Source of the DNA: Thermoanaerobaculia bacterium | GTDB taxonomy: Bacteria; Acidobacteriota; Thermoanaerobaculia; Gp7-AA8 | Reading direction: 5' to 3' | DNA length: 64,000 nt | Assembly (NCBI GenBank): GCA_035629395.1 | Contig: DASPHZ010000030.1 | Coordinates: 25,440-89,439 of the forward strand | Shown: piece after piece, positions 16,871 through 43,276 of the stretch | Layout: every line of letters begins with the position of its first letter | How positions within the stretch are numbered: the first letter of the stretch is position 1 | Program-made: the position numbers and the translations under genes | The notes under the pieces: generated by a model | Told to the model about the DNA's origin: nothing | What the model saw: the letters and a program-made list of their open reading frames with translations, nothing else | Database searches by the model: none

Positions 16871-17959
16871 ATGAGACTGACCCCTTTCGCCAAGGTCTTC
16901 ATCACCATTGTGATCCTCGGGATCATCGGCTACATCGGCTGGCATTACCGCGACAAGCTGCCGAAGGGCGGCCAGAAGCAGGACGCGTCCACCGCGACGT
17001 CGGGCACGACCACGACCGCCGCGGCCACGAGCACCGCACCCGGCGCCACGCCGGCGTCGACCCAGCCCAGCCCCACCGGCGTGCTCGCGAAGATCCGCCG
17101 CGACAAAGTCCTGCGCGTCGGGATGGAGCCGGATGCGCCGCCGCTGCATTTCATCAACGAAAACCAGCAGGAAGACGGCTTCGACTTTCAGATGGCCGCG
17201 CGGATCGGAAAGCATCTCGGCACCGAGCGCGTGCGCGTCGTCGAGGCCGACTACGGCGAGCTGCCCGCGCTGCTGCAGCGCGGCGACATCGACATCATCA
17301 TGGCAGGCTACGTCCCCGATCCCGCGGTCCAGGGCGTCGACTGGAGCAACGGCTATCTCGACTTCGGCCTCTGCATGATCGTGCAGGAGGGGATGCTCTC
17401 GAGCTACCGCGACGTCTCCGACCTCGCCGGAAAAGTCGTCGCCATCTACGACGACCCTGCCGCCGAAAAGTGGGTGCGGGCGAACATCCCCAACGCCACG
17501 ATCCGCAAATTCTCCGGCGACTCCGGATGGTTCGAAGCCGTCGAGAACGGCCAGGCCGATGCGCTGATCTACGACTATCCGTTCGCGGCGGTCGAGATCA
17601 AGGAGCATCCGCGGACCGTCATCGCCAAGTACAACCTCAACAAATCAAAATACGCCGTCGGCGTCCCCTCCGGAAATTACGACCTGGTCTACGAGATCAA
17701 CCAGGCGCTCGACCGGATCAAGGAATCCGACCAGTACGCGACGCTCATGAAGACCTACCTGGCGAGCAAATCCGAAGCGTTCATGCAGCCGGTGGCCGGA
17801 CGCAGGACGCATCGCGTGGTGGCCGGCGACACACTCGGCAAGATCGCGCGCCAGGAGCTCGGCAGCTCGGAGCGCTGGGAAGACATCTGGAAGCTCAACA
17901 CCGAGCGCGTCGCCGATCCCAACCTCATCTACCCCGGACTGGTGTTGATCCTGCCGTAA
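16871..17959 (+). CDS. Membrane-anchored solute-binding protein (SBP_bac_3, amino-acid-binding type) fused to C-terminal LysM domain
   Basis: N-terminal TM, Thr/Ala-rich linker, periplasmic binding fold, C-terminal LysM (HRVVAGDTLGKIARQELGSSERWEDIWKLN...LIYPGLVLILP). Confidence 0.75.
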   Translation: MRLTPFAKVFITIVILGIIGYIGWHYRDKLPKGGQKQDASTATSGTTTTAAATSTAPGATPASTQPSPTGVLAKIRRDKVLRVGMEPDAPPLHFINENQQEDGFDFQMAARIGKHLGTERVRVVEADYGELPALLQRGDIDIIMAGYVPDPAVQGVDWSNGYLDFGLCMIVQEGMLSSYRDVSDLAGKVVAIYDDPAAEKWVRANIPNATIRKFSGDSGWFEAVENGQADALIYDYPFAAVEIKEHPRTVIAKYNLNKSKYAVGVPSGNYDLVYEINQALDRIKESDQYATLMKTYLASKSEAFMQPVAGRRTHRVVAGDTLGKIARQELGSSERWEDIWKLNTERVADPNLIYPGLVLILP

Positions 17960-34140: not shown

Positions 34141-35184
34141 GTGGACTTGAAAGCGATCTACCTCACAACGCTCGAACGCTGCACACCGGAAGTGCTCGTG
34201 CAGAAATGCGTCGACGCGTCGATGCCGCGCAACGCCGTGGCCATCGGCAAGTGCGCGGGTGCATTGCTCGATGGCGTGGCGCGCGTGCATGCGATCGACA
34301 GCGCGTTCGTCGCCGTTCCGGAGGGATATCGCCTGCCGCGCACCGCTGCAGAACTGCACGTGGGCGGACATCCGCACATGACGAAAGCGTCCTTCGACGC
34401 GGGCCGCGCGTTGCTGCGCTTCGTGGAAGCGCATGCGGACATCCTCTTCCTCGTTTCAGGAGGCGGCAGCGCATGTGTCGAAGTCGCCTTGCGCGACGAA
34501 GACGAAACCGCGTCCGCCAACGCGAAGCTCATCGCCTCGGGACTGCCGATCGGCGCGATCAACGCGGAGCGACGCAAACACTCCGCGATCAAAGGCGGCA
34601 AGCTGCGCGAGCGCGTCCGCGGCCGCTGCGTCACGCTCGTTTACTCCGACGTCAGCACGGGTGCGCTGACCGACGTCGCCTCGGGTCCCACGATCACGAC
34701 GAACGAAGAAGCCACGCTCATCGCCGACAACACGACGCTCGTGCAGACCGCAAGGCAAATCATTGGTGACAAGGCCGTCGTGATCGAAGAGCAGATCGAG
34801 ATGGATGTGTTGGACGCCGCAGCGATGCTTGCGCGCCATGAAATCCGAAGCGGTCAGGTGCTGGTGGCAGGAGGAGAGCCGACCGTGCAGGTGCGAGGGA
34901 GGGGGAAGGGCGGGAGGTGCAGCGAGATGGCCGTGCGGTTTGCGCTCGAAAGCCGGTGTGAGGCGCTGTTCGGGAGCAGCGATGGCGTGGATGGGAACAG
35001 TGGCGTTGCGGGGTTCTGGATGCCGAGCCGGGCGGAGGCTGGCGGCCCGCTCGACCGTACGTTGGCGCTCCGGGCGCTCGCGCGGTCCGACTCCTACGCG
35101 ATCGCGGCGCAAATTGGTGAGCCGATTATGATTGCGCCGACAGGAAACAACCTGCGCGACCTCTTTCTCGTGGCTCGTGATTAG
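34141..35184 (+). CDS. Glycerate kinase-like protein (MOFRL/DUF4147 family)
   Basis: FLVSGGGSA...LVAGGEPTVQV motifs of glycerate 2-kinase (GckA/TtuD type); GTG start. Confidence 0.65.
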   Translation: MDLKAIYLTTLERCTPEVLVQKCVDASMPRNAVAIGKCAGALLDGVARVHAIDSAFVAVPEGYRLPRTAAELHVGGHPHMTKASFDAGRALLRFVEAHADILFLVSGGGSACVEVALRDEDETASANAKLIASGLPIGAINAERRKHSAIKGGKLRERVRGRCVTLVYSDVSTGALTDVASGPTITTNEEATLIADNTTLVQTARQIIGDKAVVIEEQIEMDVLDAAAMLARHEIRSGQVLVAGGEPTVQVRGRGKGGRCSEMAVRFALESRCEALFGSSDGVDGNSGVAGFWMPSRAEAGGPLDRTLALRALARSDSYAIAAQIGEPIMIAPTGNNLRDLFLVARD

Positions 35185-35216: not shown

Positions 35217-38200
35217 ATGAACGTCTCCGATCCCGCAGATCCGCTGTTGCCGGCTCCTCGCCGAGGACGGCGGAGGACTGCTCGGGAGCGGCAGCGCAAA
35301 GGCCCGATGTTCGGCTGCATCAAGGGCCTCATCTGGGTCTTCGGCGTCGGCTTTCTCGTGCTCCTCATCGGCATCGGCACGGGCTGGTTTCTCCTCGGCT
35401 CGACGAACTTCGCCGATTACGTCCGCAAGCGCATCGAGACCACACTCGAAACCCGTCTCGGACGTGAAGTCACGATCGGAAAAGTGATCTTCGTCCGCAC
35501 GCGCCCGCAGAAGATCATCCTCCAGAATCTGCGCATCGCGAACGCGCCCGGCGGTGCGGCGCCGCAGTTCGCACTCGTGCGCGAAGTCGAGCTCACCGGC
35601 GGCATCCAGTCGTTCTGGGGACGCGCGGTGCAGATCGATCGCATCGACATCCGCGATCCGCAGGTGTGGTTCGAGCTCCTTCCGAACGGTGAGCACAACT
35701 TCCCGAAGTGGAAGACGGGGCCGAAGCGCCGCTTCGAGATCGTGCGCGTCGACTTCCGTCATCTCTTCATCCGCGGCGGCGCGTTCAGCTTCAACGATCG
35801 CAAACACGAGATCGTCGCGGTCGCGCAGAAGATCGCTTCAGACATCACCGTCACTCGCGCCGAGGGGTTGTACGCGGGCCTCATGACCAGCCCGAACGTG
35901 CGCGTGAGCATCCAGGACTACCAGCCGTTCGACGTCACGATGCGCGGCGGCTTCCGCTACACGCCGGGCGTGCTCGCGCTGCAATCGATCGCGCTCGAAG
36001 GCCGCGGCATCCAGGCCTTCCTCACCGGCAAGCTCGATCCGCTCACCGAAGCCGTGTACGACCTCGGACTGCGGGCGCGCCTCGACCTCCCGCGCGTGAA
36101 AGAGATCTTCGCGGTCGAGCCCGTGCTCGAAGGGACGATCGCGCTCGACACGCGCCTCAAAGGAAAGGCCGGCGACTTTACGCTCGCGGGGGGCTGGACG
36201 GCGCCGAAGCTCGTCGCCGACGCGTACGAGCTCGCGAACGCGCGCGGCACGTTGAGCGTTACCGCCGACAACCTCACCATGGACGTGCAGCGCGCCGAAT
36301 ACGGCGGCGGCACGATCGGCGCGAACTACGTCCTCGCAAAGTACGCCGAGCCGTATCCGATGCGCGTCGATCTGCGCTACTACGGCATCTCCATCGAACA
36401 GCTCTTCAGCGACTGGGGCGTCGAAGGGACGGGCCTGCGCGCCGCGGCGACGGGCAATCTCGAGTACCGCTGGAACAAAGAGAAGATCCTCGAAGGCGCC
36501 GGCGAAGGCACCGCGCGGCTGGCGAAGAACGCGGTGGCGTTCTCGAATGCGCGCTACCCGATCGGCGTCACCGGCTCCACGGACTTTGCGCTGAACAACG
36601 GCGTCGTCACGTTCCGCCGCGCGGAGCTCGACACCGACGCGTCGCACATCAGCCTCACCGGCAACCTGAAGATCGAGGACGTCGTCACGGACCTGCGCAT
36701 GGCGATCCGCAGCACCGACTTTGCGGAGCTCGATCGCCTCGCGTTCAACTTCGCGCAATCCGCGGGCAAGAACGATTTCGAGCTGCTCGGATTCGGCGGC
36801 GCGGGCACGATCACCGGCACCGTCAAAGGTCCGATCGAAACGCCGCAGGTCGTCGCTCAGGTGAACGGCTCGCAGGTGCGCTACAGCGAAGTGCTCCTCG
36901 GCGACGCCGACATCGCGCTGCGCTACGACGGCAATCGTTCCACGCTCACGTTCGATCGCGCGATTTTCGTCGACGCCGGCGGACGCCTCACGCTCACCGG
37001 CACGATCGAGTTCCCCGATCGCGGACCCGGTCCCGTGTTCGACATCGCCGTCGAAGCGAACGGCTATCCCGCGCAGCGCGCGATCGACGCGGTCGGACTC
37101 GATCTGAAGATCGGACCGGGCCTGGCGACGGGACGGATGGTCGTCGCCGGCACACCGGAGCAGGGACGCGCGACGTTCGCGGGACTCACCGTCCGCCGCA
37201 ACGACGCCACGCTCGCACTCAACGGCACCATCAACTGGCTGCCGGGCGAAGGCAACGTCGCGTTCGACCTCGACATCGCCGCGACGAACTTCCCCGTGGC
37301 CGACATCGCCGCGTTCCTCGACTTTGCGGACATCCCCATCACGGGCGATCTCACCGGCACGCTGAAGATCGCGGGCCGCAAGGAATCGCTCGAAGGCTCC
37401 GGACGCGTGACCATCGCGCGCGGCGCGGTGATGGGTGAGCCGGTCGATCTCGCGTCGGCGGACATCGTCTTCAGCGAGGGACGCATGCGTGCGACGAATG
37501 TGCTCGTGCGCGCGGCGGCGGGCGAGGTCCGCGGCGAAGCGGAGATCGATCTCGCGAACGAGCGTTTCAGCTACACGATCTCCTCGGCCGCGCTCGATCT
37601 GTCGCGCCTGCAGTTGCTGCAGGGCATGCAGGACCTCTTCGGCGGACGACTCGTGCTCCGCTCGACCGGCGCCGGCACGTTCGAACAGCCGGAGCTCGTG
37701 ATCGAAGCGACGCTGGAAGAAGGGACGCTGCGCGGACTGACGCTGCCCGCGGGCTCCGCGCCGCCGTCGCTCTATCTCGCCATCCGCAACGGTCGCCTGA
37801 TCATCCGCGGCTCCGTCGCGGACATCGTCTCCATCGAAGGCGAAGGGCTCGTCGGCGAGAACCTCGCGGTCGACGGCAACGTGCGCATCGTCATCGCCGA
37901 CATCGCGGGCGCCATGGCCATGGCGCCCGCAACCGCTTCGTTCCCCGCATCCGGCAACATGACGATCGACGTGCGCCTCGGCGGCAGGCTCACGCCGATC
38001 GAAGCGCTCGTCGCCGAAGTCACCGCACCCGTCTTCAACCTTCGCTTTGCCGATCACGAGCTCACGCCCGCGGAGCCGCTGCGCATCTCGCTGCGCAACG
38101 GACGGCTGTCATTCGACTCTTTCGTCGTGCGCCGTCCCGACTCCGAGTTCGCCGTCACCGGCTTCGCGGAGATCACCGGCAACAAACAACTCGACGTCGA

Positions 38201-41200
38201 CGTGCGCGGACGCGCGAACGCCGCGCTCGTGCAGCTCTTCGCGCCCGATATCCGCGCCGAGGGATACGCGAATCTCTCGATCGGCGTGGATGGGACTTTG
38301 AGCGCGCCGCGCGTCCTCGGATCCGCGGAGCTCGTCGACGCGCAGGTGAAGTTCGCGGGATTCCCGCAACTGATCGACGAGATCAACGGCACGCTGCAAT
38401 TCCGCGGCGACCGCATCGAGATCGAATCGGTGCGGGCAACCCTCGGCGGCGGCACCGTCGTCGCGGGCGGCGCGATCGCGCTCAACGGCACGACCCCGCG
38501 CAGCGCGCGCATCACCCTGCAGGGCAACGACGTCGCGTTGCGTTACTACGAAGGGCTCACGCTCGAAGGCAACTTCACGCTGCTGCTCACGGGCGACATG
38601 GATCGCGGCCTGCTGCAGGGCGACATCGACGTCACCCGCGCGCGCTACTTCCGCGACTTCGACATCCAGCAGGCGCTGCTCAACGTCCTCCTCGCGCGCA
38701 ACCGCGTGACGCCGGTGAGCGCGGCCACGTGGCAGGAGCGCGTCGGCCTGCGCCTGCATCTCTCCGCGCCGGGCACGCTCGCGGTCGAGAACAACATCGC
38801 AGACGTCACCGGCAGCGCGGAGCTCGACGTGAACGGCACGATCGCGGCGCCGGTGATCATCGGCGAGGTCACGCTCGACGAAGGCGGCACCGTCACGATC
38901 CAGAACGTCGACTACCGCGTCGCGCGCGGCACCATCGCGTTCCAGAATCCGTTCCGCATCGATCCCTTCTTCGACGTCACCATCGAAGGCACCGTCTCCG
39001 GCTTCGGGTCGTCGGAGACCGAAGGCGGCCCATACGAAGTGAGCGTGAATCTCACCGGTACGCTCGATCGCCTCACGCCGACGGTCACGAGCGATCCTCC
39101 CGCCAGCGACATCACGCTCTTCTCCATCCTCGGCTTCGGCGCACTCGGAAGCCGCCAGCCCGGACAGCAGGCGAGCGGCGTCGGGTTGCTCGGCCAGTCG
39201 CTGCTCTACCAGAGCCTCAGCTCCTTCATCGGCTCGACGGTCTTCCCGTTCGTCGACTCGTTCGCGTACGACCCGGGCACGCTCGACGCGAGCACCGGCG
39301 CGGGCCCGCGCGTAACGTTTGAAAAGCGGCTCTCGAATCGCGTGCGCTTCCTCGTCGTCTACAACCTCGAAGACCAGCGCAGCCGTCAGGTCATCGAGTG
39401 GCTCGTCAATCCGACGTGGACGCTGCAGCTCACGCGCGACGAGGAAGACGAGTACCGCCTCGACGCGCGCTTCCGCCGCCGCTACGAAGCGCACTGGCAG
39501 TGGGGCGACGACGATCGCGCCACGAACATCGCCACGTCGTCGAGTGTAGGGACAGGCGCGGTGCCCGTCGCCACACCGGCTCCGGCATTGACGCTCGTCA
39601 ACACGCGCGCGGCCGACGACCGCCCCATCGCGCGCATCGATTTCCGCGCCGACGCCGGATTCGACACGAACGCGGTCGCGCAGGAAGTGACGCTCGCGCC
39701 GGGCGAAGTGGTGACCATCCGCGAGCTGCAGTCGTCGATCAAGAATCTCTTCGCCACCGGCAACTTCCGCGACGTACGCGTCGACTCCACGCCCGGACCG
39801 GACGGCGTCGTCCTCACGTTCTCGCTCTTCCTGCATTACCGCATCGGCGCCATCGAAGTCGCGGGCGTCGAACGCGGCGACCGCACGCGCGCGCAGCGCG
39901 AGCTCACCGTGCGCGCGGGCGAAGTGCTCTCCCTCGACGACGTCGACGACAGTGCGTCCGCCATCGAAGAGACGCTGCAACAGCACGGCTATCTCGAGGC
40001 GGTCGTCGATCCCGAGACGAACTTCGACCGCGCGCGCAACGTGGCCGACGTCACGTTCCACGTCACGCCGGGACCGCAGGCCACGATCGCGAGCGTGATC
40101 CTCGAAGGCAACACCGCGCCGTTCACGACGGACGACCTCCTCGAGCGCATGAGCCGCCGCGCGGGACGCACGTTCAGCCTCCCCGACGCGCGCGAGGATG
40201 CGGACCGCATCCAGAACTTCCTCGTGCGCCGCAATCACCGCCGCGCCGACGTCGACTTCCTCGGCCACACCTACGACGAAGCGACGCACGGCGTCACGTT
40301 GCGCTATCGCGTGCAGGTGGGACCCACCGTGCAGGTCGCGGTGAGCGGCGTACCGCGAAGCATGGTCCGCCGCTGGCTGCCGTTCGCGCGCAACCAGGAG
40401 TACAGCGAAGACGTCGTCGAGCGCGCCGCGGACCGCATCACCGAGGGGCTGCAGGAGCGCGGCTACTTCCTCGCGACCGTCGACACCGAGAGCTCGCTCG
40501 AGAACAACGTCTGGACGACGACGTTCCACGTCGATCCGGGTGTGCAGTACCGCCTGCAGGAAGTCCGCTTCAGCGGCAACGCGAAGATCGAGGACGGCGA
40601 GCTCGAAGGCGTCGTGGCCACCAATCCGCGCGGCGGCTTCCGCGGCTTCGTCGCGCGCCTCTTCCGCCGCCCGACCGGCGTCACGCGCACGCAGCTCTCC
40701 GACGACCGCGACTCCGTCGAATCGTTCTATCGCCTGCAGGGCTTCTCGCAGGCGACCGTCGGCGAGCCGATCGCGCAGACGCGCGCCGACCAGACGCTCG
40801 TCGTCGACTTCCCGATCACGGAAGGGCCGCAAACGCTGCTCGCCTCGGTCCGTCTCGAAGGGGTGCAACCGGATCACGTCGACGAGATGCCGAACCTGCA
40901 ACTGCGTCCCGGCGAGCCGCTCAATCCGCAGCTCCTCAACGAAGACGTCATCACGCTGCAGACGTTCTACGCGAACCGCGGCCATGTCGAAGTGCAGGTC
41001 TCGCCGCGCGTCGACACGACGGAGGATCAGACGACGGCGACGCTCGTTTACGTGATCGCGGAAGGGCCGCAGGTGAACGTCGACGAGATCACCGTGCGCG
41101 GCAACACGTACACCGATCGCGACGTCGTGCTGCGCCGGTCGGGCCTGGAGGCGGGACGTCCGTTCAGCTACACGTCGATGCTCGAAGCGCAGCGCGAGCT

Positions 41201-42428
41201 CTATCGCCTCGGCATCTTCCAGCGCGTGGAGGTGCAGCCGACGCAGACCGACACGACGGTCGGCGATCGCGACGTCGTCATCCAGGTCGAGGAAGGCCGC
41301 AACCTCACCGTCACCGGTTCGGTCGGTATCCGCGCCGAGCGCGGCACCAACGTCGGCAGCGGCCTCGAAGTGCACGAGCGGATCGCGGCCGCGGTCGCGC
41401 ATCGCAACCTCTTCGGCACCGGCCGCTACCTCGGCCTCGAAGGCGTCTACAGCCGCGAAGAGCAGGAAGCGTTCATCACGTACCGCGAACCGTTCGTCGG
41501 CCGCTGGAACGTGCCCGTGCAGTTGCAGATCTTCCAGTCCGACGACACGACGCGCGGCGCGACCCAGATCCTGCAGAAGGGACTGTCGGTCGAGGCCTCA
41601 CGCGTGGCGCGCCTGCAGACGCGCTGGTCGCTGCGGTACGAGTACAAGATCTCGACGTGCGAAGGCGGCGAGCTGTGCGACGACATCAAGGACGGCGTGA
41701 TCGTCGAGAACCTCGACCGCTCGCTGCTCGACATCCAGATCTCCTCGATCGCACCGACGTTCTTCTGGGACCGCCGCGACGACATCATCGATCCGCACCG
41801 CGGCTTCTTCGCCAGCGCCTCGGTCGAGTACGCGTTCCCGCTGTTCTCCGCCTCGGCCGGATTCACGAAGGAGTTTGTGCAGGGCGCGTATTACATCCCG
41901 CTCACCGAGCGCACGGTGATCGCGCTGTCGGGACGGGCCGGTTTCATCCAGCGTTACGCGAAGCGCTTCGACGAAGACCTCGGACGCGACGTGCTGCGCG
42001 ACACGCCGCTGTCGGAGCGCTTCACCGCCGGCGGCGAGACGACGCATCGCGCGTTCGCGCTGGATCGCCTCGGCGATCCGTGCATGGAGAGGAAGGACGC
42101 GCCGGTCGACGAGACGTGCTCGCGCACGCTGCGCTACGACCCCGACACGGGACGCATCCAGCCGCTCGGCGGCAACGCGCTGCTGCTGTTCAACGCGGAG
42201 TACCGCTTCCCGATCTTCGGCACGCTCGGCGGCGCGGCGTTCGTCGACATCGGCAACGTCTTCCCCGACAGCACGGTGCGCTTCAACGAGCTCCGTTACG
42301 GAGGCGGCCTCGGACTGCGCTACCTCTCGCCAGTAGGTCCGCTGCGGTTCGACGTGGCGATGCCGTACCGGCGCAGATGGTACGAGGACCGCGTGCAGTT
42401 CTTCTTCTCCCTCGGATACGCGTTCTGA
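35217..42428 (+). CDS. Giant fusion protein: TamB/AsmA-like (N-terminal TM anchor through DUF490-like C-terminal region, about aa 1-1420) fused to POTRA repeats plus Omp85/BamA-TamA-type beta-barrel (about aa 1460-2403)
   Basis: Single uninterrupted ORF with coherent GC3 throughout. N-terminal TM (LIWVFGVGFLVLLIGIG) and long beta-rich AsmA/TamB-like region ending in a DUF490-like segment (...VNLTGTLDRLTPTVTSDPPASDITLFSILGFG...VTFEKRLSNRVRFLVVYNLED...WTLQLTRDEEDEYRLDARFRRRYE). Linker, POTRA-like modules (IARIDFRADAGFDTNAVAQEVTLAPGEVVTIRELQSSIKNLFATGNFRDVRVD...), and Omp85 barrel ending ...GGNALLLFNAEYRFPIFGTLGGAAFVDIGNVF...LRYLSPVGPLRFDVAMPY...FFFSLGYAF. Confidence 0.75.
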   Translation: MNVSDPADPLLPAPRRGRRRTARERQRKGPMFGCIKGLIWVFGVGFLVLLIGIGTGWFLLGSTNFADYVRKRIETTLETRLGREVTIGKVIFVRTRPQKIILQNLRIANAPGGAAPQFALVREVELTGGIQSFWGRAVQIDRIDIRDPQVWFELLPNGEHNFPKWKTGPKRRFEIVRVDFRHLFIRGGAFSFNDRKHEIVAVAQKIASDITVTRAEGLYAGLMTSPNVRVSIQDYQPFDVTMRGGFRYTPGVLALQSIALEGRGIQAFLTGKLDPLTEAVYDLGLRARLDLPRVKEIFAVEPVLEGTIALDTRLKGKAGDFTLAGGWTAPKLVADAYELANARGTLSVTADNLTMDVQRAEYGGGTIGANYVLAKYAEPYPMRVDLRYYGISIEQLFSDWGVEGTGLRAAATGNLEYRWNKEKILEGAGEGTARLAKNAVAFSNARYPIGVTGSTDFALNNGVVTFRRAELDTDASHISLTGNLKIEDVVTDLRMAIRSTDFAELDRLAFNFAQSAGKNDFELLGFGGAGTITGTVKGPIETPQVVAQVNGSQVRYSEVLLGDADIALRYDGNRSTLTFDRAIFVDAGGRLTLTGTIEFPDRGPGPVFDIAVEANGYPAQRAIDAVGLDLKIGPGLATGRMVVAGTPEQGRATFAGLTVRRNDATLALNGTINWLPGEGNVAFDLDIAATNFPVADIAAFLDFADIPITGDLTGTLKIAGRKESLEGSGRVTIARGAVMGEPVDLASADIVFSEGRMRATNVLVRAAAGEVRGEAEIDLANERFSYTISSAALDLSRLQLLQGMQDLFGGRLVLRSTGAGTFEQPELVIEATLEEGTLRGLTLPAGSAPPSLYLAIRNGRLIIRGSVADIVSIEGEGLVGENLAVDGNVRIVIADIAGAMAMAPATASFPASGNMTIDVRLGGRLTPIEALVAEVTAPVFNLRFADHELTPAEPLRISLRNGRLSFDSFVVRRPDSEFAVTGFAEITGNKQLDVDVRGRANAALVQLFAPDIRAEGYANLSIGVDGTLSAPRVLGSAELVDAQVKFAGFPQLIDEINGTLQFRGDRIEIESVRATLGGGTVVAGGAIALNGTTPRSARITLQGNDVALRYYEGLTLEGNFTLLLTGDMDRGLLQGDIDVTRARYFRDFDIQQALLNVLLARNRVTPVSAATWQERVGLRLHLSAPGTLAVENNIADVTGSAELDVNGTIAAPVIIGEVTLDEGGTVTIQNVDYRVARGTIAFQNPFRIDPFFDVTIEGTVSGFGSSETEGGPYEVSVNLTGTLDRLTPTVTSDPPASDITLFSILGFGALGSRQPGQQASGVGLLGQSLLYQSLSSFIGSTVFPFVDSFAYDPGTLDASTGAGPRVTFEKRLSNRVRFLVVYNLEDQRSRQVIEWLVNPTWTLQLTRDEEDEYRLDARFRRRYEAHWQWGDDDRATNIATSSSVGTGAVPVATPAPALTLVNTRAADDRPIARIDFRADAGFDTNAVAQEVTLAPGEVVTIRELQSSIKNLFATGNFRDVRVDSTPGPDGVVLTFSLFLHYRIGAIEVAGVERGDRTRAQRELTVRAGEVLSLDDVDDSASAIEETLQQHGYLEAVVDPETNFDRARNVADVTFHVTPGPQATIASVILEGNTAPFTTDDLLERMSRRAGRTFSLPDAREDADRIQNFLVRRNHRRADVDFLGHTYDEATHGVTLRYRVQVGPTVQVAVSGVPRSMVRRWLPFARNQEYSEDVVERAADRITEGLQERGYFLATVDTESSLENNVWTTTFHVDPGVQYRLQEVRFSGNAKIEDGELEGVVATNPRGGFRGFVARLFRRPTGVTRTQLSDDRDSVESFYRLQGFSQATVGEPIAQTRADQTLVVDFPITEGPQTLLASVRLEGVQPDHVDEMPNLQLRPGEPLNPQLLNEDVITLQTFYANRGHVEVQVSPRVDTTEDQTTATLVYVIAEGPQVNVDEITVRGNTYTDRDVVLRRSGLEAGRPFSYTSMLEAQRELYRLGIFQRVEVQPTQTDTTVGDRDVVIQVEEGRNLTVTGSVGIRAERGTNVGSGLEVHERIAAAVAHRNLFGTGRYLGLEGVYSREEQEAFITYREPFVGRWNVPVQLQIFQSDDTTRGATQILQKGLSVEASRVARLQTRWSLRYEYKISTCEGGELCDDIKDGVIVENLDRSLLDIQISSIAPTFFWDRRDDIIDPHRGFFASASVEYAFPLFSASAGFTKEFVQGAYYIPLTERTVIALSGRAGFIQRYAKRFDEDLGRDVLRDTPLSERFTAGGETTHRAFALDRLGDPCMERKDAPVDETCSRTLRYDPDTGRIQPLGGNALLLFNAEYRFPIFGTLGGAAFVDIGNVFPDSTVRFNELRYGGGLGLRYLSPVGPLRFDVAMPYRRRWYEDRVQFFFSLGYAF

Positions 42429-42681: not shown

Positions 42682-42924
42682 CTAAAAACTCGTCTCGAGC
42701 GAATCCGCCGCGGCCTGTGCGCGCTCCTGCTCGATGCGTGCGAGGCGGGTGCGCAGCTCGGTGATCTCGTGCTGCATCTTCGTGAAGTCTTCCTTCACGG
42801 CTTCGCGCGCGATCTCCTGGAGACGCGATGTGAGCTTCCCGAGCTGATCGGACTGGAACTGCGTGAGGCGGCTCAGCGGCTCGCCGAAGACGTCTTTCAG
42901 AAGCGATTCGAAATCCTGCGCCAT
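42682..42924 (-). CDS. Small coiled-coil protein (possibly UbiK/YqiC-like), hypothetical
   Basis: MAQDFESLLKDVFGEPLSRL...ITELRTRLARIEQE; resemblance to the UbiK family is weak. Confidence 0.4.
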   Translation of the reverse strand: MAQDFESLLKDVFGEPLSRLTQFQSDQLGKLTSRLQEIAREAVKEDFTKMQHEITELRTRLARIEQERAQAAADSLETSF

Positions 42925-42958
42925 GGCGAAAAGGGTGTGCGAGAATCGGGCCCGTCCC

Positions 42959-43276
42959 ATGGAAATCCGTTCGTTCGCCGAGTTCTGGCCGCACTACGTC
43001 CGGGCCCATTCGCGGCGGCGTACGCGCGTGCTGCACGCGATCGGATCCACGCTCGCGCTTGCCGCCATCGTCGCCTCGATTTTCGTCAGCCCGTGGTTCC
43101 TCCTCGCGGCACCGCTCATCGGCTACTCGTTCGCGTGGTACGGACACTTCTTCGTCGAGCACAACAAGCCGGCGACGTTCGGCCACCCGTTCTATTCGCT
43201 GGCCGCGGATTACGTCATGGTGTGGAAGATGATCACCGGCCGCATGGGCGCCGAAGTCGCCAAACACGTGCGCTGA
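42959..43276 (+). CDS. DUF962 (Mpo1-like) membrane protein
   Basis: FAEFWPHYVRAH...YGHFFVEHNKPATFGHPFYSL is a DUF962 signature. Confidence 0.65.
   Translation: MEIRSFAEFWPHYVRAHSRRRTRVLHAIGSTLALAAIVASIFVSPWFLLAAPLIGYSFAWYGHFFVEHNKPATFGHPFYSLAADYVMVWKMITGRMGAEVAKHVR

Follow-up and report, generated by a model that had tools for sequence, protein, structure and literature searches.

Domain architecture of the fusion gene

The window analysed here, meaning the whole stretch of 64,000 nucleotides taken from a Thermoanaerobaculia bacterium (assembly GCA_035629395.1, contig DASPHZ010000030.1, positions 25,440 to 89,439), carries a gene in which a TamB-like protein and an Omp85 barrel preceded by POTRA repeats are joined in one chain. 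The gene is a single uninterrupted open reading frame (ORF) of 2403 codons plus stop at 35217..42428 on the forward strand, where all features described below lie unless stated otherwise. It is complete, with homologues covering 99-100% of it, and is conserved in soil Acidobacteriota of the class Thermoanaerobaculia; its GC content at the three codon positions (0.67/0.46/0.89) is like that of the neighbouring genes. We interpret the product as a natural covalent TamB-BamA fusion that would act as a single-chain TamB-Omp85 trans-envelope machine (probability roughly 0.7). An original prediction, made from the DNA letters alone, had placed a single 2403-aa ORF with consistent GC3 bias at exactly this position and had read it as an N-terminal transmembrane anchor with about 1400 aa of TamB-like sequence ending in DUF490, a low-complexity linker of about 40 aa, and a POTRA and Omp85 part. 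This layout is recovered in full: the anchor lies within aa 31-62, the TamB-like part measures about 1390 aa, the linker is present, and the Pfam searches that had been named as a check return both TamB-type and Omp85-type domains.

The TamB half starts with a hydrophobic signal-anchor helix at aa ~36-60 (35322..35396). On the Kyte-Doolittle scale (19-aa window) values above 1.8 are reached only at aa 31-62, the sole transmembrane-like segment of the protein, and a basic tail precedes it, as would be expected for the N-terminal inner-membrane signal-anchor of a TamB. An AsmA/DUF748/YhdP-like region follows at aa 37-212 (35325..35852; Pfam E = 2.6e-11, 2.4e-6 and 6.5e-6, all under the gathering scores), while the TamB/DUF490 domain itself, at aa 1073-1423 (38433..39485), is well above its gathering score of 22.4 (PF04357, 140.1 bits, E = 1.5e-40). 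In an AlphaFold2 (AF2) model built on an alignment of 60 sequences that included divergent fusions (predicted local distance difference test score, pLDDT, 81; predicted template modelling score, pTM, 0.63), and covering the protein beyond its N-terminal 1237 aa, two helices at aa ~1298-1342 are followed by six beta-strands at aa 1348-1423. This terminal six-strand segment (39258..39497; pLDDT about 71-86, blocks 131-190) ends in ARFRRRYEAHW, the last residue being W1427. The RFRRRYEAHW motif is invariant in the aligned homologues and equals the natural C-terminus of unfused TamBs, and the terminal module of helices and six strands is predicted to be intact in the fusion. DUF490 does not close the chain as it does in a typical TamB, since 976 residues of linker, POTRA repeats and barrel follow.

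In the public annotation, an identical protein (P0001, 2373 aa) is given M31 as its first residue. We suggest 35217 rather than M31 as the true start of the gene; it is better supported because the codons for aa 1-30 (chiefly ...HRSARERQRKGPMWGC) are kept in frame across distant sublineages, in dozens of loci, with a stop codon just before them. The 30 residues (35217..35306) would form a basic cytoplasmic N-terminal tail running into ...HRSARERQRKGP. Immediately ahead of the membrane anchor stands an invariant cysteine, C34.

The interdomain linker occupies aa 1428-1470 (39498..39626), and is thus 43 aa long and not hydrophobic; the stretch quoted in the original prediction corresponds to aa 1426-1468. 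Among 74 aligned homologues the distance from W1427 to D1479 varies between 50 and 77 aa, around a hypervariable centre rich in A, T, S, G and P. The first linker residues, aa ~1429-1435, are predicted to be disordered (pLDDT below 50). A conserved short motif (hydrophobic-A-T/S-x-A/S-T/S-hydrophobic, for instance NIATSSS or DFATAAT) was observed at aa 1438-1444 (nt 39528-39548), where the model places a beta-strand (pLDDT about 77) whose pairing partner might be a POTRA domain or the TamB sheet.

Seven POTRA repeats are found at aa ~1471-2026 (39627..41294; PF07244, seven stretches, 199.5 bits), and the AF2 model shows seven beta-alpha-alpha-beta-beta units there, mostly with pLDDT above 85. 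They lead into a BamA-type beta-barrel of the 16-strand kind at aa ~2030-2403 (41304..42425; PF01103 at aa 2064-2403, 155.5 bits), which ends in ...FFFSLGYAF, a typical beta-signal of outer-membrane proteins (OMPs). The NCBIfam equivalog model for BamA is passed (TIGR03303, 374.8 bits against a cut-off of 297.15, aa 1695-2403), the score for the TamL equivalog is far below its cut-off, and the closest solved structure by sequence profile is a BamA (4k3b, E = 1.9e-40, versus 5e-17 for TamA). Foldseek searches of the PDB gave the same picture, with BamA chains filling all of the top 50 matches (best E = 9e-47); the TM-scores were slightly higher for substrate-engaged states of the BAM complex, but these values are confounded by target length and were not used. 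Judged by these profile and structure matches, the Omp85 half is of BamA type rather than TamA type, because it has seven POTRA repeats and not three, passes TIGR03303, fails the TamA equivalog and has BamA proteins as its best solved relatives. The original prediction had called this half TamA/BamA-like; its POTRA repeats and barrel are there and belong to the BamA side of that label, while the TamA side falls away (NF047950, 91.5 bits against a cut-off of 625). By its sequence the protein is a member of two families at once, TamB (Pfam) and BamA (TIGR03303). Two traits of a canonical BamA are nevertheless lacking, as there are seven POTRA repeats instead of five and a non-hydrophobic linker in place of the cleavable signal peptide.

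Two further peculiarities of the barrel were observed. Four cysteines at aa 2148, 2154, 2289 and 2301 (nt ~41658-42119) are invariant in the 74 homologues and could form two loop disulfides, which would be unusual for a BamA barrel. At aa 2266-2280 (PLSERFTAGGETTHRAF) the (V/I)RG(F/Y) position of Omp85 loop 6 reads HRAF in the clade with seven POTRA repeats, with H2277 and R2278 invariant; a divergent fusion family, described below, retains RGF at this position.

Integrity of the reading frame across the junction

A fused gene of this kind could be mimicked if a frameshift or an overlooked stop in the contig had run adjacent tamB and bamA genes together. The concern has a concrete basis, as a close relative truly has two genes with a 4-nt overlap, from which a single indel error could produce an apparent fusion. 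Several independent observations speak against it. An identical protein was assembled independently from NCBI (184 kb), ENA (127 kb), Logan (10 kb) and JGI data, and among 5.8 billion proteins searched there are at least 120 protein clusters of 2207-2461 aa, 64-100% identical, all labelled by Pfam with TamB, POTRA and Omp85; the members that carry an organism name come from Thermoanaerobaculia or Acidobacteriota metagenome-assembled genomes. Every one of the 74 aligned homologues has the junction in frame, and differences in linker length among them are of whole codons only. Proteins aligning across the junction, for which the original prediction had proposed to search, are therefore numerous, and no stop or frameshift lies at the junction in genome loci: it is stop-free in all 16 loci of species-representative genomes (the whole gene in 12 of the 16). 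In metagenome loci, which were obtained by an alignment-based scan (a scan with the single unfused TamB P0132 gave no matches), the frame stays open for 954-1017 codons beyond the TamB end in 68 of 80. A homologue on a 5.08-Mb long-read contig (L102; ENA ERZ25039559 contig_10975) has an intact fusion ORF of 2414 aa. Finally, the fused forms have no hydrophobic core of a signal peptide left at the junction. The fusion gene is real, and an assembly error is refuted for practical purposes; the chance that one accounts for it is negligible.

Some irregularities were also seen. In three metagenome loci (L029, L086 and L094) the fused frame halts 263-419 codons into the Omp85 half; errors of sequencing, pseudogenes or truncated variants could account for these early stops. 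On the long-read contig L102, two genes near the fusion, those for enolase and DNA polymerase I, are broken into pieces in a manner typical of indel errors.

Origin from a neighbouring tamB-bamA pair

When 1.84 billion cluster representatives were searched exhaustively, fused relatives down to 43% identity were recovered as well as unfused ones. The TamB-only relatives (1405-1495 aa) terminate exactly at the RFRRRY..(W/F) motif, and the BamA-only relatives (about 950 aa) have a cleavable signal peptide at the N-terminus and the POTRA1 motif after it. Both are found side by side in a sister lineage (L017, CAAGKR010238031.1), where the orthologous position holds a glycerate-kinase-like homologue (44% identity), tamB and bamA as separate genes, with the TGA of tamB overlapping the ATG of bamA as ATGA. 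The L017 TamB shares 54% identity with the unfused TamB P0132, the scan query mentioned above, over the best aligned segment. The L017 BamA (966 aa) is 50% identical to aa 1469-2403 of the window protein, shows five scored POTRA stretches and a barrel, is of the size of a BamA with seven POTRA repeats, and passes the BamA equivalog (362 bits). Its signal peptide sits exactly at the position of the linker in the fusion and reaches a Kyte-Doolittle value of 2.49 over 15 aa, against only 0.4-1.6 in the fused linkers.

The locus of the window thus has the same order as that of L017 and differs in that the latter keeps two genes and a BamA signal peptide. Because the L017 genes overlap by ATGA and the BamA signal peptide lies where the linker now is, we conclude that an adjacent tamB-bamA pair with overlapping stop and start was the source of the fusion. 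A frame change at the 4-nt overlap united the two genes, and the region coding for the signal peptide decayed into the linker, which marks the site of the ancestral stop/start overlap together with the former signal peptide. Several fused sublineages still open the linker with a basic-then-hydrophobic relic, e.g. WGSRGRNPFEVFSF.

Such a linker also raises the question of whether the two halves stay joined. It is long, of low complexity and in part predicted to be disordered, and it descends from a former signal-peptide region, so that a periplasmic protease might cut it and leave a complex of mature TamB and BamA, the fusion then serving only co-export and stoichiometry. The centre of the linker is hypervariable in both sequence and length and offers no conserved cleavage site, no hydrophobic core is left for signal peptidase, and the conserved elements, above all the predicted strand at aa 1438-1444, look structural. 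We consider such a polyprotein improbable and prefer a chain that remains covalent.

Recurrence of TamB-Omp85 fusions

The architecture is not restricted to close relatives of the window protein. Among the 150 best cluster representatives at 50% identity, 63 have a single chain that combines the C-terminal domain of TamB with POTRA repeats and a barrel; eight of these are of the type with seven POTRA repeats and 55 of a divergent type. The Pfam domains were confirmed in 22 divergent fusions, and more than 100 members of this second type were listed (1.9-2.3 kaa), the named ones being Thermoanaerobaculia, Acidobacteriota and Vicinamibacteria. Proteins of the second type (e.g. P0302 and P0161) are only 20-33% identical to the window protein, with which they share the three-part order TamB-POTRA-Omp85. 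Their POTRA region spans about 410-540 aa versus about 590 here, their linkers are mostly shorter, and their barrel fails the BamA equivalog (175 bits against a cut-off of 297).

In a neighbour-joining tree of the TamB C-terminal domain, which is rough and carries no support values, the second type forms one clade with unfused outgroups, and fused and unfused forms interleave within the clade with seven POTRA repeats. Because the second family falls in a separate clade, the tree suggests that it represents an independent fusion: on this evidence TamB-Omp85 fusions arose independently at least twice, and probably more often. No contig common to both fusion types was seen among the listed matches, which is weak evidence against their co-occurrence.

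Hundreds of database entries carry the TamB, POTRA and Omp85 labels together, under names such as 'TamB domain-containing protein' or 'BamA' that conceal the fused architecture. Our literature search, which covered papers other than subscription-only ones, found no published description of a TamB-Omp85 or TamB-BamA fusion, nor is one mentioned in either of two papers on these families (PMC4494059; Heinz and Lithgow 2014). The original prediction had taken the fusion to be undescribed, and in print this seems to hold; as an architecture it is anything but rare, being numerous in the databases. We regard it as a variant of a known system that is real, recurs and seems to be undescribed. It is informative for work on TAM, BAM and AsmA-family proteins, but is not a new kind of machine.

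Proposed working and relation to known systems

[quoted passage not shown] The fusion resembles this system in its signal-anchored TamB part, in the DUF490 strands that would dock on an Omp85 barrel and in its predicted span of the periplasm. E. coli TAM differs in being made of two polypeptides, with a TamA that has three POTRA repeats and its own signal peptide, whereas the fusion is one chain with seven POTRA repeats and a BamA-grade barrel and fails both the TamA and the TamB equivalogs.

In Borrelia, TamB pairs with BamA itself, and its terminal helix and six strands are modelled as completing the BamA barrel (PMC13382580). This BAM-TAM of Borrelia burgdorferi (TamB BB0794 and BamA BB0795) has both the partnership and the tamB-then-bamA order in common with the fusion, but consists of separate proteins in non-covalent contact and has a BamA with five POTRA repeats. 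A TamB homologue of the inner envelope is also linked to an Omp85 of the outer envelope in the chloroplast TIC236-TOC75 system (10.1101/2021.04.25.441383); there the proteins are again separate, and the setting is protein import into a eukaryotic organelle. In the known Omp85-WD40 proteins (Heinz and Lithgow 2014) the fused partner is a periplasmic lipoprotein-like domain that provides neither a membrane-spanning bridge nor an inner-membrane anchor.

By analogy with these systems, we propose the following working for the fused protein. All periplasmic and outer-membrane parts would be exported by Sec behind the single N-terminal anchor, and the barrel would be inserted in the outer membrane. 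The terminal strands of the TamB half may then dock in cis on the barrel seam, forming a hybrid barrel; because these docking strands are even in number (six), the chain would return to the periplasm, where a linker of 43-70 aa could reach POTRA1. The outcome would be one polypeptide anchored in both membranes with a fixed 1:1 stoichiometry. The function might be that of the two-protein machine, with the TamB groove conducting phospholipid to the outer membrane, beta-barrel proteins being assembled, or both; E. coli TAM has been linked to phospholipid transport as well as to OMP assembly (PMC13119328). The original prediction had supposed that the fusion hard-wires the contact between DUF490 and POTRA. 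Structural work has the C-terminal strands of TamB docking into the Omp85 barrel instead, so this part of the proposal does not stand, and the two halves are fused at the periplasmic end of the TamB docking segment. The protein must be able to work with the TamB end permanently tied to POTRA1.

A number of points weigh against such a single-chain machine. The full-length product, its topology and its activity are all predicted from the gene sequence. The TamB half matches no solved structure in a comparison with PDB sequences and scores 31.7 bits on the equivalog for the autotransporter-assembly TamB (NF047952), against a cut-off of 825. A first AF2 run on 13 close homologues was poor (pLDDT 57, pTM 0.35); it was used for secondary structure only and then superseded by the model on 60 sequences. 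Moreover, a permanently occupied barrel seam is hard to reconcile with general OMP insertion, which would need either another BamA or dynamic disengagement of the TamB strands.

The last point bears on the role of the barrel. The Omp85 half could be a diverged paralogue, an analogue of TamA in a TAM-like or lipid-transport device, with a canonical BamA encoded separately at another place in the genome and responsible for general OMP insertion. A canonical BamA plus a duplicated, TamB-linked BamA has been reported for Acidobacteria (Heinz et al., PMC4494059), a stably occupied seam (PMC13119328) seems ill-suited to general insertase activity, and the barrel of the second fusion family does not score as a BamA equivalog. 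The window protein and its unfused orthologue do (374.8 and 362 bits against 297), and spirochaetes, whose linked BamA is their sole BamA, have the same tamB-then-bamA order (PMC4494059). By tblastn, no second Omp85 was detected in the 64-kb window or in about 100 flanking loci, which cover a small part of each genome, and no second TamB was detected in the window. Weighing both sides, we give the paralogue slightly better than even odds. That the fused protein is the only BamA-grade Omp85 of these Thermoanaerobaculia seems rather doubtful by comparison. If it were, the essential insertase for beta-barrels would consist of a single chain that includes an inner-membrane-anchored lipid bridge, and OMP insertion and phospholipid delivery would be physically united in one trans-envelope machine, a living instance of the BamA and TamB combination proposed as ancestral.

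Gene fusions found in nature are classic 'Rosetta stone' evidence for two proteins working as a unit. The TamB-Omp85 fusions would thus indicate independently that the cognate partner of TamB is a BamA-type Omp85, at 1:1, in a deep-branching diderm lineage. Their fixation at least twice also supports the view of Heinz et al. that TAM descended from a BamA-TamB pairing that came first (PMC4494059); the same authors argue that the TamB C-terminus mimics the strands of an OMP. In practical terms, the single-chain TamB-BamA protein offers a ready-made construct for structural work on a complete bridge from the inner to the outer membrane.

Gene neighbourhood

A glycerate-kinase-like gene (DUF4147 and MOFRL domains) at 34141..35184 ends 32 nt ahead of the fusion gene and is syntenic in relatives, including L017. 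The original prediction had likewise noted a glycerate kinase-like gene upstream and no separate tamA nearby, and the window indeed has no second TamB or Omp85 gene. Co-transcription of the two genes is possible; a scan for promoters and terminators between them gave nothing above the shuffled expectation. On its downstream side the fusion gene has a small conserved ORF and then Mpo1-like and FabI-like genes; neither skp nor lpxD is present there, and the genome loci share this order from the glycerate-kinase-like gene to the FabI-like gene. The small ORF (42682-42960, reverse strand; 80-92 aa) belongs to no confident Pfam family and is syntenic in related loci at 67-89% identity. In one locus (L016), a 33-aa copy of the extreme C-terminus of the barrel, 70% identical, is found at 16948-17046, about 5 kb downstream of the fusion gene, and may be the remnant of a duplication.

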